From an uncultured Gammaproteobacteria bacterium (GTDB lineage: Bacteria > Patescibacteriota > Microgenomatia > UBA10105 > UBA927): 64,000 bases of DNA. How positions within the stretch are numbered: the stretch's first letter is position 1; each line of letters begins with the position of its first letter. The notes below the pieces were generated by a model, which was not told where the DNA came from, made no database searches, and saw nothing but the letters and a program-made list of their open reading frames with translations. Positions 3,478 through 56,767 of the stretch are shown here, one piece after another. The DNA lies in assembly GCA_964621305.1 (NCBI GenBank), contig CAZUOM010000002.1:73733-137732 (forward strand), written 5' to 3'. The position numbers and the translations under genes were made by a program.

Positions 3478-4292
3478 CTGATCCAAACCTCTGGAACCAA
3501 CTGCTTATCTGGCCGATTGTTAATCTGTTGGTGGCCTTTTATAAATTGTTTGAGCTTTTGCACATTCCCGGCCCGTTGGGATGGGCAATCATACTTATGA
3601 CGATTGCCATTCGGCTTCTCCTTTATCCCCTCATGGAAAAGCAGCTTGCTTCAGCCAAAAAGATGGCGTCGCTCAAGCCCCACATGGATGCACTTTCCGC
3701 AAGACACAAAGACGATAAAAAGGCCCTCCAACAAGCACAACTTGCGCTTTATAAAGAGCACGGGGTAAATCCTGCCGCCGGATGTCTCCCTCTCCTGATT
3801 CAAATGCCGGTTTTGATTGCCCTCTACAACGTGTTTTATCAAATATTAAGCAACGGAAATTTGGAAAAAATGGTGGAAACCATCAATCAAGTTGTCTATC
3901 TGCCGCTATTGAAGCTGACGTCGCTTGACCCGACGTTTTTCGGAGTCAATCTCGGCATCAAACCTGAGCAGTGGCAGACACATGGCGTATGGCTTCTTTC
4001 CGTGCCGGTTATAACCGGCGCCCTCCAGTGGTGGCAATCTAAGTTGATGATCCCTCCTTCGTCGGGACAAGTGCCAAGCACTGCGTTAGCCAGCAATAAA
4101 GAAGAAAAGAAGCCGGAAGATACGGCGATGGAGATGCAAAAGCAGATGGCCATAATCATGCCCCTCATGTTTGGCTACTTCTCGCTTCAGTTTCAGTTGG
4201 GCCTGGCGCTTTACTGGAATATGTTTGGAGCGCTTGGTATTATTCAGCAATTGTCTGTGAACAGACAAAACACGGAATATGGAAGCAATTGA
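3474..4292 (+). CDS. yidC: membrane protein insertase YidC (short form)
   Basis: 272 aa, multi-TM, LYPL...QMPVLIALY, located after yidD. Confidence 0.85.
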
Positions 4293-4734: not shown

Positions 4735-5291
4735 AAATAGGTCTCCTCGGCGGCGTTTTTAATCCTCCGCACGTCGGACATCTCATTATCGCCCAGCAGG
4801 TTTTAGATTTTACAGACATTGAAGAGATTTGGTTTGTCCCCAATTACGGCCAGCTTCCCCCCAAGCCCAACATTGCTTCCTCGGTTGATCGGTTGGCTAT
4901 GACGAAATTTTTGGTGTTGCCGAGGACGCGAATTTCGACGCTTGAAATCGACCATAAACTTGACGGTAACACTATTAATCTTCTCCCTTATTTACCCAAA
5001 GAACATTCATATCAATTTATCATGGGCAGCGACTGGTTATCGTATTTTAGGCAGTGGGGTCAATGGGAAGAGCTTATTGAACAATTGCCCTTTCTTGTGT
5101 TTCCCCGTAGCGGCCACCCCATGGAACCGCTGTATAAAAACATGACACCACTCAAACACGAACTGTTAGTCACCACGAACATTTCCGCGACCAAAATCCG
5201 CGAGCGCATAAGACGAGGGTTGCCCATCGACCAGTTGGTGCCGCGGGAGATTGCCGAATATATAAAGAGGCATGGATTATATTTGACTTGA
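4731..5291 (+). CDS. nadD: nicotinate-nucleotide adenylyltransferase
   Basis: GGVFNPPHVGHL (the (H/T)xGH motif) and overall NadD-like sequence. Confidence 0.85.
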   Translation: MKIGLLGGVFNPPHVGHLIIAQQVLDFTDIEEIWFVPNYGQLPPKPNIASSVDRLAMTKFLVLPRTRISTLEIDHKLDGNTINLLPYLPKEHSYQFIMGSDWLSYFRQWGQWEELIEQLPFLVFPRSGHPMEPLYKNMTPLKHELLVTTNISATKIRERIRRGLPIDQLVPREIAEYIKRHGLYLT

Positions 5292-36169: not shown

Positions 36170-36709
36170 ATGTCGATCTACACCCGTACCGGTGACGACG
36201 GAACGACCGCGCTTTTTGGCGGAAAGAGGGTCTTAAAATGCGAAGATCTCGTGGATGCCTATGGTTCTTTAGATGAGCTCAATTCGTGGGTTGGATTCAT
36301 CGCCTCGCAGAGTAAAGAACAGAGCGAGAAAAAATTTCTTCAAACAATACAATCAGACCTTTTTACCATTGGGAGTACGCTGGCCGGATGGAAGGGGGAT
36401 ATAACACAACTGGGCAAACGCGTTATAGAAATGGAACAATGGATCGACCGGATGGAAAAAGTCCTGCCAGAACTTACGAACTTTATTCTTCCCGGCGGGT
36501 CAACCAACGGAGCACGAGTTCATTTGGCGCGAAGCGTTTGCCGGCGGGTTGAACGAAAAATTGTTGCGTTGAAGAAAAAACAAGAGGTTGATCTATCTAT
36601 TATTGAATATCTTAACCGTTTTTCGGACTTGCTATTTACTCTGGCGCGAATTATAAATAAGGACGCAAACGTACCAGAAATAATTTGGAATAGTAGAAAA
36701 AAAGCTTGA
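36170..36709 (+). CDS. PduO-type ATP:cob(I)alamin adenosyltransferase
   Basis: MSIYTRTGDDGTTALFGGKRVLKCEDLVDAYGSLDELNSWVG is the PduO-family N-terminus. Confidence 0.85.
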   Translation: MSIYTRTGDDGTTALFGGKRVLKCEDLVDAYGSLDELNSWVGFIASQSKEQSEKKFLQTIQSDLFTIGSTLAGWKGDITQLGKRVIEMEQWIDRMEKVLPELTNFILPGGSTNGARVHLARSVCRRVERKIVALKKKQEVDLSIIEYLNRFSDLLFTLARIINKDANVPEIIWNSRKKA

Positions 36710-36877
36710 TTGGGGGAATCGTGGTGCAATCCCACGGCTGTGCCGCAACTGTATAGCCAGACTACCCAATCACGCGTCATCCCAGCATCACCAGAATGTG
36801 CTGGGTAAACCTTCGAGCAAAGGGCAGTTTTTATACGCGCCTTCTCGCTCGAGGAGGTTTTTTGATGGGAAATAGAT

Positions 36878-42652: not shown

Positions 42653-42725
42653 GGGCCGGTAGCTCAGTGGTAGTAGCACTACTCTTATAAAGTAGGGGTC
42701 GATGGTTCGATCCCATCCCGGCCCA
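42653..42725 (+). tRNA. tRNA-Ile (anticodon UAU)
   Basis: Cloverleaf folded by eye: acceptor GGGCCGG/CCGGCCC, anticodon stem CTACT/AGTAG, loop cTTATaa, T-arm GATGG-TTCGATC-CCATC, discriminator A. No CCA is encoded. Confidence 0.7.
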
Positions 42726-42763
42726 CATAAGCAAAGAGAACACATCATACATCTAAAGAGCAT

Positions 42764-51418: not shown

Positions 51419-51811
51419 GGGGATGAGTGATTCGACGGGGAGAGCACGTTAAAAACTGCAAGCCGGCGATGACAAAAGAGCCGTAAAAATTTGTCAAATC
51501 TAACTGCTAATATTATTAGCGAGGAAGACGAGCAAGCGCTTCTTGCGTTAGCTCTCTCCCGACGTCAAGCACGATTGGCTTTTGCCTATCAAGCGTAAAC
51601 GTCCATCTCTAAAGTTGTTTTCTCGGTGACTCTCTTGAGGTGTAAAAACAGCCGAGGCGTCAGGAGTCAATTGACCGATTGATTCCGGAGTAAAAGGTCA
51701 AACCATTGTACGGTTTTTGTCCGTTTTTATCGTATAATGTATCAAACGGACTACGCTTGTAGATGTTTAGATGTGCTCCTTCGGACCCGGGTTCATTACC
51801 CGGCATCTCCA
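51419..51811 (+). ncRNA. ssrA: tmRNA (ssrA)
   Basis: 5' GGGGATGAGTGATTCGACGGGG (canonical GGGG.UG...GAUUCGACGGGG). 3' tRNA-like end GGACCCGGGTTCATTACCCGGCATCTCC-A with acceptor pairing GGGGATG/CATCTCC including the G3-U70 Ala identity pair. About 393 nt, immediately downstream of smpB. GCT resume codon at nt 88. Confidence 0.85.
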
Positions 51812-51813
51812 CA

Positions 51814-52437
51814 GTGGGAATTTTAGATTTTATTTTTCCGAAGCGCTGCCTGGGGTGCGGGAGGACCGGAAAATATTTTTGTGACAGGTGCAGAAGAGAG
51901 ATCAGAACAATTGAAACGCGCGAGAGGGCAACAGGCAGCCTCGACGGCTTGACAAGCTTTTTTCGTTACGACAGTCTTGTCAGACAAGCAATAAAAGCGC
52001 TCAAATATAGCTTCGTCTCCGACCTTGCTCACGAATTTATTTCTCTTATCCCACAATCATCGTTTTTTCGTCTCCCTAAGTACTCTGTTCTCGTGCCGAT
52101 TCCATTGCATTCGGCACGGTTGCGGCATCGCGGTTTTAACCAAGCAGAACTTTTAGGAAATTTGATTGCACAAAAGCTATCTATTCCGATGCGAACTGAC
52201 ATATTGGTCCGTACGCAAAAAACCACTCCCCAAGTAGAAATGAAGGATAGAGAAAAAAGGCTAAAAAATATGCATAATGTTTTTTCGGTTAGCTCTTCAA
52301 CAATTCAACAATTTAACAATGCAACAATTTTTCTTTTCGACGATGTCTTCACCACCGGTGCCACCATGCGCTCAGCAGCAACCGCGCTTAAGCGGAACGG
52401 GGTAGGATTTGTTTTGGGTATCACGATGGCACGGTGA
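51814..52437 (+). CDS. comF: ComF-family phosphoribosyltransferase (competence protein ComFC)
   Basis: GTG start taken so the gene does not overlap tmRNA. ...ILDFIFPKRCLGCG...CDRC is the Zn-finger N-terminus. PRT motif IFLFDDVFTTGATM. Confidence 0.7.
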   Translation: MGILDFIFPKRCLGCGRTGKYFCDRCRREIRTIETRERATGSLDGLTSFFRYDSLVRQAIKALKYSFVSDLAHEFISLIPQSSFFRLPKYSVLVPIPLHSARLRHRGFNQAELLGNLIAQKLSIPMRTDILVRTQKTTPQVEMKDREKRLKNMHNVFSVSSSTIQQFNNATIFLFDDVFTTGATMRSAATALKRNGVGFVLGITMAR

Positions 52438-55378: not shown

Positions 55379-55423
55379 CCAAATATGCTTGCACTGAGGA
55401 TCTGCCAGCCGGCGGAGGCCAAG

Positions 55424-55495
55424 TGCCAGCGGCAGGGATTGAACCTGCTACCCTCGCCTTATGAAGACGGTGCTCTACCAATGAGCTACGCTGGC
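55424..55495 (-). tRNA. tRNA with CAU anticodon (Met or Ile2-lysidine type)
   Basis: Reverse complement GCCAGCG-TA-GCTC-ATTGGTA-GAGC...ttCATaa...GCAGG-TTCAATC-CCTGC-CGCTGGC-A. The anticodon stem is only 4 bp with a U-G pair. Confidence 0.65.
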
Positions 55496-55923
55496 TCAGC
55501 CTCATTGTATGAAACTTGAGCTAGAAAGGCAATTCTGGTATAGTAGTGATGTTCATTTACCGCGGGGTAGTGTACAGTTGCACAGAAGGCTTAAGTATGG
55601 GCTCATCGGTAAGAAATTACTGTATGATAATTCGGCTATATCGGTGAAACCCGGATATTATGACTTTGTCACCGTCCGGGCAATACCGAGGAAAGATCCC
55701 GAGTAGAATCGAGGGAAATCCGTAGAGACTATACGCCGAACCCTTCGTCGCTTCGCTCCTCAGGGCAAGTCCTGTCGAGCGAAATTGACAAGGTGATGAT
55801 ATAGTCCGACACTCTCAGTAATGGGAGCCCGTGAAGCAGAACAAGTACGCTTCAGGGTAAAAAACACGTGCATAATCTTCTAGGCTGGGTGCGACTCCCA
55901 GCCCCGCAACCCAGGCTATTAAA

Positions 55924-55954
55924 CAAAAAACCACTCATTATGAGTGGTTTTTTG
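55924..55954. terminator. bidirectional intrinsic terminator hairpin AAAAAACCACTCAT-ta-ATGAGTGGTTTTTT
   Basis: Read directly: perfect 13-14-bp stem flanked by an A-run and a T-run. Confidence 0.75.
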
Positions 55955-56090
55955 TTCCAGCCTGGTGGGGTCGGTCCCGCCGATGGCGAAGCCATAATGG
56001 CGGGATAATGACCCCAACTCTTTTTCTTCCAGCCTCATCGGGTCGGTGTGCGCAAAGCGCACATAATGACCCGAACAGGATTACAATAAC
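55954..56090. repeat. two tandem hairpin repeat units sharing TTCCAGCCT..GGGTCGGT..ATAATGACCC flanks with different internal stems
   Basis: Unit 1 GGGGTCGGTCCCGCC...GGCGGGATAATGACCCC. Unit 2 CGGGTCGGTGTGCGCaaaGCGCACATAATGACCCG. Confidence 0.6.
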
Positions 56091-56093
56091 CTA

Positions 56094-56363
56094 ATGTATT
56101 ACGTTTACGTTCTTCAATCACAAAAGAAATCTAAATGGCTATATAAAGGTTCAACTTCGGATCTCAAAAGACGCCTTGCCGAACATAACGCAGGTAAAAA
56201 TTTTTCTACCGCTCCATATATTCCATTTACGCTTATTTATTACGAGGCTTATCTTCTAAAATCTGATGCAGAAGCAAGAGAGCAATATTTAAAAACATCA
56301 ATGGGAATGAGGGTTTTGAAGAAACAATTATCAAATCTGTTGAAAATTGGAGAGAAAGCATGA
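56094..56363 (+). CDS. GIY-YIG nuclease-family protein
   Basis: YYVYVLQS...LYKGSTSDLKRRLAEHN is the GIY-YIG motif. Confidence 0.75.
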   Translation: MYYVYVLQSQKKSKWLYKGSTSDLKRRLAEHNAGKNFSTAPYIPFTLIYYEAYLLKSDAEAREQYLKTSMGMRVLKKQLSNLLKIGEKA

Positions 56364-56378
56364 TACATTACTCGCCAT

Positions 56379-56696
56379 ATGCTGAAATTTGAAGATTTCG
56401 CAAAATTAGAAATAAAAATGGGTACTGTTCTTGAAGCAGAACGAGTAGCTGGTACAGATAAATTGTTAAAAATTGTAGTAGACATGGGTAATGAAAAGCG
56501 CCAGGTAATTGGGGGATTTGGAAATAAATACACACCAGAAAGCCTAATAGGAAAACAAGTGCCCATTGTTTTAAACATTGAGCCAGCAGTTATAAGAGGC
56601 GTTGAAAGTAATGGTATTTTTATGGCTATTGACGCAAATGAACCAATGCTTCTTTTACCCGAAAATTCAGTTCCCAACGGAAGTAAAGTAAAATAG
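56379..56696 (+). CDS. stand-alone tRNA-binding (EMAP/CsaA/Trbp111-like) domain protein
   Basis: FAKLEIKMGTVLEAERVAGTDKLLKIVVDMGNEKRQVIGG is an OB-fold tRNA-binding domain, as found at the C-terminus of MetRS. Confidence 0.7.
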   Translation: MLKFEDFAKLEIKMGTVLEAERVAGTDKLLKIVVDMGNEKRQVIGGFGNKYTPESLIGKQVPIVLNIEPAVIRGVESNGIFMAIDANEPMLLLPENSVPNGSKVK

Positions 56697-56767
56697 CTTA
56701 TTCCAATTGAAAATAATACGTTCTAATTTCCTGTAATCCCCGCAACAAAATACAGGCGGACGCCCAT

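Follow-up and report, generated by a model that had tools for sequence, protein, structure and literature searches.

A tRNA(CAU) gene very probably split by a group I intron, and an adjoining block of covarying hairpins, in a Microgenomates-type Patescibacterium

Introduction

Four classical sites of intron insertion are recognised in bacterial tRNA genes, one of which is fMet 33/34 ('fMet.2Ug'; Williams 2020). Introns at this tRNA-fMet site are common in Cyanobacteriota and Pseudomonadota, and Met(CAU) introns at 33/34 have been listed for two complete Patescibacteria genomes, GCA_001029755.1 and GCA_013426185.1 (Nakagawa 2026). The fMet.2Ug introns, first described in cyanobacteria, are classically of subgroup IC3, and two of the cyanobacterial fMet 33/34 introns encode PD-(D/E)XK endonucleases. 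Another intron, that of Azoarcus, lies in tRNA-Ile2, at 36/37 (Williams 2020). Here we analyse a segment of a 64-kb stretch of contig CAZUOM010000002.1 (assembly GCA_964621305.1); this stretch, the part of the genome that we examined, is called the window below. The segment, 55496-56093, holds what is very probably a tRNA(CAU) gene split by a group I intron, followed by a block of hairpins that leads up to a gene for a stand-alone GIY-YIG domain protein. For comparison we used a numbered set of related loci (L003, L004 and so on), which together provided 1.4 Mb that was scanned for copies of the hairpins.

Results and Discussion

A tRNA(CAU) gene very probably interrupted between U33 and C34

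We found that positions 55561-55909 (+) are, with high probability, a tRNA(CAU) gene split by a self-splicing group I intron. The 5' exon (55561-55591, +; CGCGGGGTAGTGTACAGTTGCACAGAAGGCT), delimited by running ARAGORN on a spliced construct, comprises the acceptor 5' strand, the D arm, the 5' strand of the anticodon stem, C32 and U33, and ends in U-1. The 3' exon (55871-55909, +; CATAATCTTCTAGGCTGGGTGCGACTCCCAGCCCCGCAA) comprises C34, A35, U36, A37 and A38, the 3' strand of the anticodon stem, the variable region, the T arm, the acceptor 3' strand and the discriminator A; CCA is absent from the encoded 3' end. The 279-nt intron between them (55592-55870, +) belongs to the Rfam family RF00028, whose full model (1-253) matched 55582-55828 (+) with 62.1 bits against a gathering threshold of 50 (E = 2.4e-13). 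These Rfam scans covered the whole window at the gathering threshold and 55400-56200 at E<=1.

To place the junction, we compared 15 candidates, all with G as the final intron base. Junction 55591|55871 was the only one that joined U-1, omega-G and a 7-nt anticodon loop, and ARAGORN read its product as tRNA-Met(cat). The intron is inserted between U33 and C34, and the loop after joining is CTCATAA. Orthologous tRNA genes that lack the intron (L086, L097, L100 and L102) read ...GGCTCATAATCT..., exactly the predicted junction, and the predicted ligated tRNA matched those of L086, L097 and L100 column for column, without a gap. The remaining junctions gave Cys or Ala anticodons or 8-nt loops and were rejected, as none of them combined all three features and the orthologues read CTCATAA.

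The gene is an annotation trap. ARAGORN did not find it by default, and in intron mode called a tRNA-Leu(UAA), with the intron three bases further on as in the 37/38 type. We rejected this tRNA-Leu(taa) because its bases at the splice sites are wrong (A at -1, T at omega), a long variable arm is lacking and the loop of the orthologues is CTCATAA. The correct call rests on the U-1/omega-G rule together with the intronless orthologues; as standard tools miss the split gene, the genome would seem to be without what is probably its initiator tRNA. This type of tRNA is easily missed even when it is uninterrupted: the intronless orthologue at L086 (4681-4751) was found by ARAGORN but not by the Rfam tRNA model at its gathering threshold in the multi-locus scan, and its equivalents in L097, L100 and L102 score just 45-49 bits.

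The spliced tRNA would be 70 nt long, with a D stem of 3-4 bp, a 6-nt D loop and an odd T loop, TGCGACT. Orthologous tRNA genes were present in 10 further loci, six of them split and four intronless. The exons of the window are identical to those of L096, and exons were identical or near-identical in the 10 orthologues. When the orthologous tRNAs were aligned, the cloverleaf was 100% paired and five pairs had changed on both sides; as a control here and in the alignments below, pairing was recounted after sliding the partners, which in this case lowered it to 30-56%.

The intron has the helices of a complete group I core. On the plus strand we assigned P1 (55588-55592/55599-55603), P2 (55604-55626), P3 (55631-55636/55735-55740), P4 (55641-55646/55684-55689), P5 (55650-55654/55676-55680), P6 (55690-55692/55719-55721), P7 (55727-55731/55802-55806), P8 (between 55741 and 55797) and P9 (55812-55817/55822-55827), followed by an extra 3' hairpin at about 55832-55856 and by omega-G at 55870. 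A guide sequence, UAUG|GGCU (55596-55603), pairs with both exons, which read GGCU|CAUA. In P1, the guide pairs with GGCU, the final 4 nt of the 5' exon, through G.U, G-C, C-G and U.G, with U55591.G55600 as the wobble pair; in P10 it forms 4 bp with CAUA, where the 3' exon begins, and P10 is 2-5 bp long in the homologues. The U-1.G pair is invariant in 6/6 aligned homologues. In a MAFFT alignment of six precursors, 95.4% of the cells of 45 pairs were paired, against 30-49% after sliding, and 15 pairs, including some in P3 and P7, showed compensatory change. The helices counted were P1-P7 and P9, with P7 as a pseudoknot with P3; the alignment was made independently of the structure, but the structure itself came from the window sequence.

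Introns at the same site were found in L004 (212 nt, 63.2 bits), L095 (193 nt, 70.4 bits), L098 (207 nt, 67.5 bits) and L103 (199 nt, 63.9 bits), all by Rfam, in L096 (213 nt, by ARAGORN intron mode plus alignment) and in L099 (262 nt, by alignment only). All seven introns, that of the window included, end in G ahead of CATAAT. The intron thus occupies one site in seven genomes, namely in 6/11 of the loci that are linked to a GIY-YIG gene and retain the tRNA, and in L004, which has no GIY-YIG gene.

These features suggest the following pathway. The precursor would probably be transcribed from TTGAGC-17-TATAGT (55516-55544, +), a promoter-like site that has a TG extension, lies 16 nt upstream of the split tRNA and is a match to the consensus only. 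An external guanosine would attack after U55591, and the freed 5' exon would then attack after omega-G55870. Joining of the exons would produce the anticodon loop CUCAUAA in a 70-nt tRNA with the junction ...GAAGGCU|CAUAAUCUUC..., to which CCA would be added later. We consider it very likely, from the sequence, that such classical two-step, guanosine-initiated self-splicing restores the anticodon loop. The match to the model, the splice-site bases, P1 and P10, the covariation of the core and the identity of the junction are properties of the sequence; from them we infer splicing and catalysis themselves.

One could instead regard the intron as a decayed relic in a tRNA pseudogene. At 279 nt it is longer than those of its relatives (193-262 nt), owing to three insertions that are specific to its lineage and lie in P5, in P8 and past P9. 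These insertions are, however, confined to peripheral loops, the core helices are intact and covary, and U-1 and omega-G are kept in seven genomes; the exons equal those of L096 and fold into a perfect cloverleaf. A relic is therefore a very improbable explanation.

An initial, sequence-only reading had described the segment as non-coding DNA with a possible non-coding RNA. It was right that no credible open reading frame (ORF) is present: ORFs in or across 55496-56093 do not exceed 65 aa, are mutually overlapping on both strands and coincide with RNA features. The region is indeed non-coding, structured and RNA-encoding, but it is not a stand-alone non-coding RNA, as its core is a split tRNA with a group I intron. 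Two strings likened to RNase P RNA, ACAGAAGGCTTA (CR-V-like) and GAGGAAAGATCCCGAG (CR-I-like), are both present, and would be the argument for an RNase P RNA or another free-standing RNA. Both fall within assigned elements, the first in the anticodon stem/P1 and the second in P4'/P6 of the intron, and the likeness is coincidental: Rfam returned only tRNA and the group I intron at this region, with no match to RNase P, the signal recognition particle (SRP) RNA or 6S RNA in either scan. This alternative we regard as close to impossible. The same reading had noticed a T-arm-like CTGGG-TGCGACT-CCCAG followed by an acceptor-like CCCCGCA-A (55884-55909), which are a genuine tRNA T arm and acceptor 3' strand; that they belong to a split tRNA, with its 5' exon 310 nt upstream, went unseen because the intron was not recognised. 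The Rfam comparison that it called for is the one that found the intron.

The high probability given to the split gene is for the tRNA and intron alone, and extends neither to the identity of the tRNA as an initiator nor to the role of the hairpins, to which we now turn.

The split gene probably encodes the initiator tRNA

Among bacterial tRNAs, a C1xA72 mismatch together with A73 is the signature of initiators. The window tRNA has the CAU anticodon, C1xA72 and A73, and C1xA72 occurs in 8/11 orthologues. An ordinary elongator-type tRNA-Met(CAU), uninterrupted and with a G1-C72 pair, adjoins the split gene (55423-55495, -; identified by ARAGORN and by the Rfam tRNA model with 62.4 bits), as one does in L086, L095, L097, L100 and L102. 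From these data, we conclude that the split gene probably encodes initiator tRNA-fMet.

Several observations weigh against that identity. Three of the 11 orthologues have a U1-A72 pair. The anticodon stem reads A29-U41, G30-C40 and G31.U39 (55585-55589/55876-55880) rather than three G-C pairs in all 11 orthologues, a count made from nine distinct aligned sequences with L102 judged by eye, and position 11:24 is U-A, not A11:U24. Furthermore, the tRNA inventory spans 64 kb, and a second initiator gene is possible elsewhere in the genome. The alternative is that the gene specifies an elongator tRNA-Met or a tRNA-Ile2, whose CAU anticodon is modified with lysidine. The departures at 1:72, 11:24 and the anticodon stem would agree with it, as would the assignment of comparable Patescibacteria genes as 'Met' (Nakagawa 2026) and the fact that the Azoarcus intron resides in a tRNA-Ile2, though at 36/37 (Williams 2020). 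The initiator signature at C1xA72 and A73 argues against this alternative, and so do the normal elongator tRNA-Met next door in the window and five other loci and a tRNA-Ile(UAU) carried by these genomes. We therefore judge an elongator or Ile2 identity unlikely. If the split gene is the initiator, as we favour, then the presumed initiator of this lineage departs from an almost universal feature, the three G-C pairs in the anticodon stem.

The tRNA-Ile(UAU) gene lies at 42653-42726 in the window and also occurs in L085/L086 and L097. Anticodon UAU is uncommon for tRNA-Ile in bacteria. Its presence would make a tRNA-Ile2(CAU) unnecessary, which suggests that AUA is read without the lysidine-bearing tRNA-Ile2 in these genomes.

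Another feature of the locus concerns the 5' side of the tRNA. In L096 (1974-2081) and L103 (1028-1137), a structured insertion of about 108 nt lies directly 5' of the tRNA-fMet gene and is flanked by a duplicated copy of the first ~12 nt of the tRNA (CCGCGGGGTAGT), resembling a small insertion with target duplication.

Comparison with known tRNA introns

The intron shares its host anticodon, the CU|CAUAA site and the U-1/omega-G bases with the fMet.2Ug introns, and like them it is small and ORF-less, with a P1 formed from the anticodon stem and loop. Where some cyanobacterial fMet introns carry an endonuclease ORF, this one has none. It has P2 and no P7.1/P7.2 between P7 and P3', an arrangement compatible with the IC3 subgroup of the classical members; a global alignment to the Azoarcus intron scored 78 against 66 +/- 5.5 for shuffles, which does not set it apart from them. 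What sets it apart is its host, a Microgenomates-type Patescibacterium, and a tRNA without the three G-C pairs. The compact, ORF-less, self-splicing introns of the Azoarcus tRNA-Ile2(CAU) and Agrobacterium tRNA-Arg(CCU) genes likewise sit in a bacterial anticodon loop, but they are inserted after position 36 rather than 33 and have other host tRNAs.

The nearest described relatives are the Met(CAU) 33/34 introns of Patescibacteria, which agree in phylum, anticodon and site in a comparison by description, not by sequence, and which probably form one lineage with the intron of the window. In Nakagawa (2026) these Patescibacteria genes carry the label 'Met', and no tRNA intron of the IC subgroups is reported for the phylum, which speaks against both the initiator and the IC3 assignments. 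The split Met(CAU) gene is a further member of an already known arrangement, and the seven genomes extend a published record of two complete Patescibacteria genomes.

The host itself was assigned from the kinship of its proteins. The closest relatives of its ComM protein are 63-65% identical, one of them from a metagenome-assembled genome (MAG) of Candidatus Gottesmanbacteria, and the related GIY-YIG proteins are named in Gottesman-, Chisholm-, Blackburn- and Woesebacteria; from this kinship the organism appears to be a Microgenomates-type Patescibacterium. The region is identical to contig SBBN01000005.1 of GCA_005239695.1 and to one Logan contig. When synteny was followed from ComM, the tRNA was close by in L004 only, among the nine nearest loci. 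The closest ComM relatives (L003-L010) are MAGs titled 'uncultured Gammaproteobacteria/Pseudomonadales', and their gene content and similarity to the Gottesmanbacteria MAG suggest that these taxonomic labels are wrong.

A stem-enclosed terminator and a covarying hairpin follow the tRNA

Immediately downstream of the tRNA lies a 7-bp stem, S1 (CCAGGCT, 55911-55917, with AGCCTGG, 55959-55965), that encloses a bidirectional intrinsic terminator (55911-55965, +). In the terminator, two arms of 17 nt (55922-55938/55940-55956) repeat each other perfectly in inverted orientation and are separated by 1 nt; an A-run precedes them, a T-run follows, and the 3' arm ends in TTTTTTGTT. The sequence-only reading had recognised the terminator at slightly narrower limits (55924-55954), which we extend to 55922-55956. 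As a whole, this stem-enclosed A-run/hairpin/T-run would end the tRNA transcript. Eleven related GIY-YIG loci have equivalent hairpins with T-runs, and S1 was 100% paired in alignment, with 5/7 pairs compensated.

Two hairpins follow, H1 (55967-56015, +) and H2 (56039-56073, +). They too had been seen as tandem units with shared flanks and compensating inner stems, at limits now corrected. The common flanks are TTTTTnTTCCAGCCT..GGGTCGGT and ATAATGACCCnAAC, and the self-complementary interiors are unrelated; the pattern GGGTCGGT..ATAATGACCC occurs twice where 0 occurrences are expected. The 190 nt of 55911-56100 fold at -97.7 kcal/mol (z = -11.5 vs shuffles). In each hairpin (hereafter H), the outer stem is of 7 bp, the last of them G.U. 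Two bases bulge from the 3' strand (AA, but GA or TA in three loci), and beyond them come another G.U pair and an inner stem that varies; H1 has the AA bulge, and the 3' strand of H2 carries CATAAT. Only the window has two copies. H2 is the orthologue of the single hairpin in 11 related loci and, with its TTCCAGCCTCAT prefix, matches the relatives' copy, for example that of L094, while H1 is an extra copy that arose when 72 nt, the T-run and the 3' half of S1 among them, were duplicated in tandem. Across loci, 98% of the H cells were paired, against 36-50% after sliding, and 7/11 pairs had changed on both sides, in an alignment of fixed length that was segmented by hand and hence leans towards the structure. 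Of the two G.U pairs, one is present in 10/10 distinct units and the other in 9/10.

The order S1, A-run/hairpin/T-run, one H and GIY-YIG start is the same in 12/12 GIY-YIG-linked loci, including the window. Read on the minus strand (55964..55912), the S1-terminator has the same architecture as H, with an outer GAGGnn stem, a G.U pair and an AA bulge, so that S1-terminator and H form a head-to-head inverted pair around ...CCTCA|TGAGG.... The module common to both is a bulged hairpin: GAGGnn outer stem, G.U, AA bulge and variable top. We considered long-range pairing between S1 and H and rejected it, as the variable 'nn' positions covary within S1 and within H but not between them. H-like modules are also nested in H1 (55976-56004) and located in the window-specific extension of intron P5 (55651-55679, -), in P8 of the L096 intron (2250-2282) and just past the GIY-YIG stop codon in L103 (1758-1792). 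Many H loops are C-GAA-G or C-AAA-G triloops; C-GAA-G triloops are unusually stable in DNA.

These hairpins are confined to their locus. A structure-aware scan found no H copies beyond shuffle level elsewhere in the 64-kb window or in the 1.4 Mb of loci, and all convincing copies in the window lie within 55651-56073. The exact hairpin pattern occurred in seven loci of a metagenome collection, of which L084-L086 are homologous and are three identical JGI contigs; the other four, like all four viral matches, have no inner stem and look like chance. The suggestions that the units are attC-like or REP-like did not hold. Both families share with H an imperfect palindrome, a conserved base, a variable top and bulged bases, and with the hairpin block an inverted pair arrangement and a place at gene-cassette boundaries. 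The attC cores RYYYAAC and GTTRRRY are missing from H, however: the flanks read CAT...nnCCYC-AAC, with no GTTRRRY and a 7-mer that starts with C rather than R. The only recombinase in the neighbourhood within the window is an Xer-type Phage_integrase gene about 9 kb away, with no search aimed at IntI. Nor were the units dispersed as REP/BIME (REPIN) elements are, in the window and the 1.4 Mb of loci, with RAYT left out of the search; being found in one locus only, they are not a dispersed REP-like family as far as the sequence examined goes, and instead keep one orthologous position across several Microgenomates candidate phyla. We also rejected a replication origin, terminus or dif site at the hairpins, as GC skew is positive throughout the window with no switch, and no TTATG follows 6 nt after CATAA.

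The hairpins precede a conserved stand-alone GIY-YIG gene

Downstream of H2, a gene at 56094-56363 (+) encodes an 89-aa, UPF0213-like, stand-alone GIY-YIG domain protein that is 75-88% identical across Microgenomates and consists of the catalytic domain only, without a DNA-binding domain. A -10-like box, TACAAT (56082-56087, +), lies 6 nt before its ATG and is a candidate promoter. All 12 of the 12 loci have a TAnnAT box that begins at -12 to -14 relative to the GIY-YIG start codon; no other such box occurs in the upstream 45 nt, except in L095, where a second one, TAATAT, shares 4 nt with it. H itself provides the box, as its ATAAT, in L095 and L103, where the ATG follows 1 nt past H. A box 6-8 nt before the ATG suggests a leaderless mRNA, and the GIY-YIG gene seems to be expressed in that way, judging by this spacing.

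What might the hairpins do? As a tentative working view, which we hold with less than even confidence, the terminator and H form a terminator and promoter-proximal insulator that belongs to the expression unit of the GIY-YIG cassette. A number of points tell against it. A consensus scan did not list the terminator, probably because the perfect palindrome leaves a 1-nt loop where the scan rule asks for 3-8 nt. In L101 the block precedes the GIY-YIG gene without an upstream tRNA, and the two strands differ, the minus strand favouring the left hairpin and the plus strand favouring H. A plain terminator or insulator role would explain neither of these, nor the H-like modules in intron loops.

If, on the other hand, the hairpins act as RNA, then read-through from the tRNA would make the S1-terminator and H a regulatory leader, an attenuator or translational operator, of the GIY-YIG mRNA. 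Such a role would fit the covariation, which shows selection on single-strand pairing, and the two near-invariant G.U pairs, which tie H to the plus strand, on which both genes lie. It would also fit the position of the ATG 1 nt past H in L095 and L103, and the block before a GIY-YIG gene without a tRNA in L101. Against it, the -10-like box close to the ATG in all loci implies a leaderless transcript that excludes H, the loci share no antiterminator pairing, the minus strand gives the better pairing of the left element, and no Rfam family matched. We consider an RNA leader unlikely.

The gene and the intron do not travel together: the GIY-YIG gene also stands beside intronless alleles (L086, L097, L100 and L102), and L004 has the intron without the gene. 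Because of this lack of co-occurrence, collaborative homing of an intron and a GIY-YIG protein (reviewed in PMC3984707) is unsupported.

A candidate boundary repeat and a possible inserted cassette

The GIY-YIG gene is followed by one for a free-standing 105-aa protein (56379-56696) with a tRNA-binding domain like that at the C-terminus of methionyl-tRNA synthetase (MetRS; Trbp111/CsaA-like, 102.8 bits to metG_C_term); the gene lies beside two methionine tRNA genes. Downstream of it lies a conserved repeat of about 33 nt, AATACGTTCTAATTTCCTGTAATCCCCGCAAC (56712-56746, +), which aligns without a gap to the 3' part of the tRNA as a 'pseudo tRNA-fMet 3' half'. The repeat ends in CCCCGCAAC, the 9 nt of the tRNA gene end plus one base (55902-55910). 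The block 55911-56746, with the hairpins, the GIY-YIG gene and the tRNA-binding gene, runs from the tRNA end to this repeat, a candidate for the right boundary of an inserted cassette. L004 resembles an empty site: its tRNA end is directly followed by AAAAT and a terminator, as the second repeat of the window is. Repeats of the same family occur in L094 (three copies), L102 and L103 (three copies), where they bound GIY-YIG and Fic genes; in L103 they bound two GIY-YIG genes.

Together, the mirror symmetry of the hairpins, the module copies, the promoter-like box and the boundary repeats suggest an inserted cassette at an integration hot spot. A third possibility is that a small mobile gene cassette targets the tRNA-fMet 3' end and uses the hairpins as its sites of recombination or recognition. 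The S1-terminator and H would then be one inverted bulged-hairpin motif that folds as single-stranded DNA and is recognised by a recombinase or by the GIY-YIG nuclease, following the logic of attC or REP/BIME without being a member of either family. In its favour are the shared CCCCGCAAC ends of the block, the repeats that bound the GIY-YIG and Fic genes in L094 and the two GIY-YIG genes in L103, the empty-site appearance of L004, the left hairpin mirroring H on the opposite strand, and H-like modules in intron P5 (window), in P8 (L096) and after the GIY-YIG stop (L103). The frequent C-GAA-G triloops of H, and a tyrosine recombinase gene adjoining the tRNA in several loci, point the same way.

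Much counts against a mobile cassette, however. The attC core consensus is absent from H; copies are lacking elsewhere in the window and do not exceed chance in the 1.4 Mb of loci; and the GIY-YIG protein is 75-88% identical and syntenic, as expected under vertical inheritance. The second repeat was present in only 4/12 loci, neither it nor the junction had a viral or plasmid-like copy in IMG/VR, which led us to reject a phage or plasmid origin of the repeat, and the recombinase may be a housekeeping Xer protein. We regard this role of the hairpins as doubtful. A weaker form of the attC-like and REP-like suggestion, that the hairpins belong to a small inserted gene cassette, may hold. More speculative, and in our view improbable, is that the inverted terminator-hairpin and H, the leaderless GIY-YIG gene and the 33-nt repeat represent an undescribed family of integrative cassettes at the Microgenomates tRNA-fMet 3' end, with the hairpins as single-strand recognition or recombination sites and with module copies that entered the peripheral loops of the neighbouring intron. 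Whichever role applies, the locus couples a highly conserved, stand-alone GIY-YIG gene, at what may be a hot spot of integration, with a hairpin pair that covaries and is strand-asymmetric.

Further features of the locus and its relatives

L103 contains a second, divergent GIY-YIG gene (2606-2990; 81 aa) with a like layout in different sequence. It has a CCCCGCAAC repeat, a terminator within a long stem and a short hairpin; TATACT lies 6 nt ahead of the ATG, and another repeat follows the gene. In L094, no intact tRNA-fMet gene lies within 2.5 kb, where only the repeat is found; direct repeats at 2341-2374, 3481-3514 and 4790-4823 delimit one unit of hairpins, GIY-YIG and ORF191 and another with Fic, and the third repeat is followed by another S1-like start (TGAGGACATTAA).

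Both divergent promoter-like sites fall in the 65 nt (55496-55560) that separate the two tRNA genes of the window. The one for the elongator tRNA-Met, TTGCCT-17-TACAAT (55504-55532, -), has a -10 element that ends 9 nt before the tRNA 5' end and is again a match to the consensus only. As the sequence-only reading had stated, the transfer-messenger RNA (tmRNA) is encoded elsewhere, with an Rfam match at 51419-51814. Finally, an AdoCbl-II (cobalamin) riboswitch aptamer matched at 36704-36775 of the window, with 40.4 bits against a gathering threshold of 36.5.

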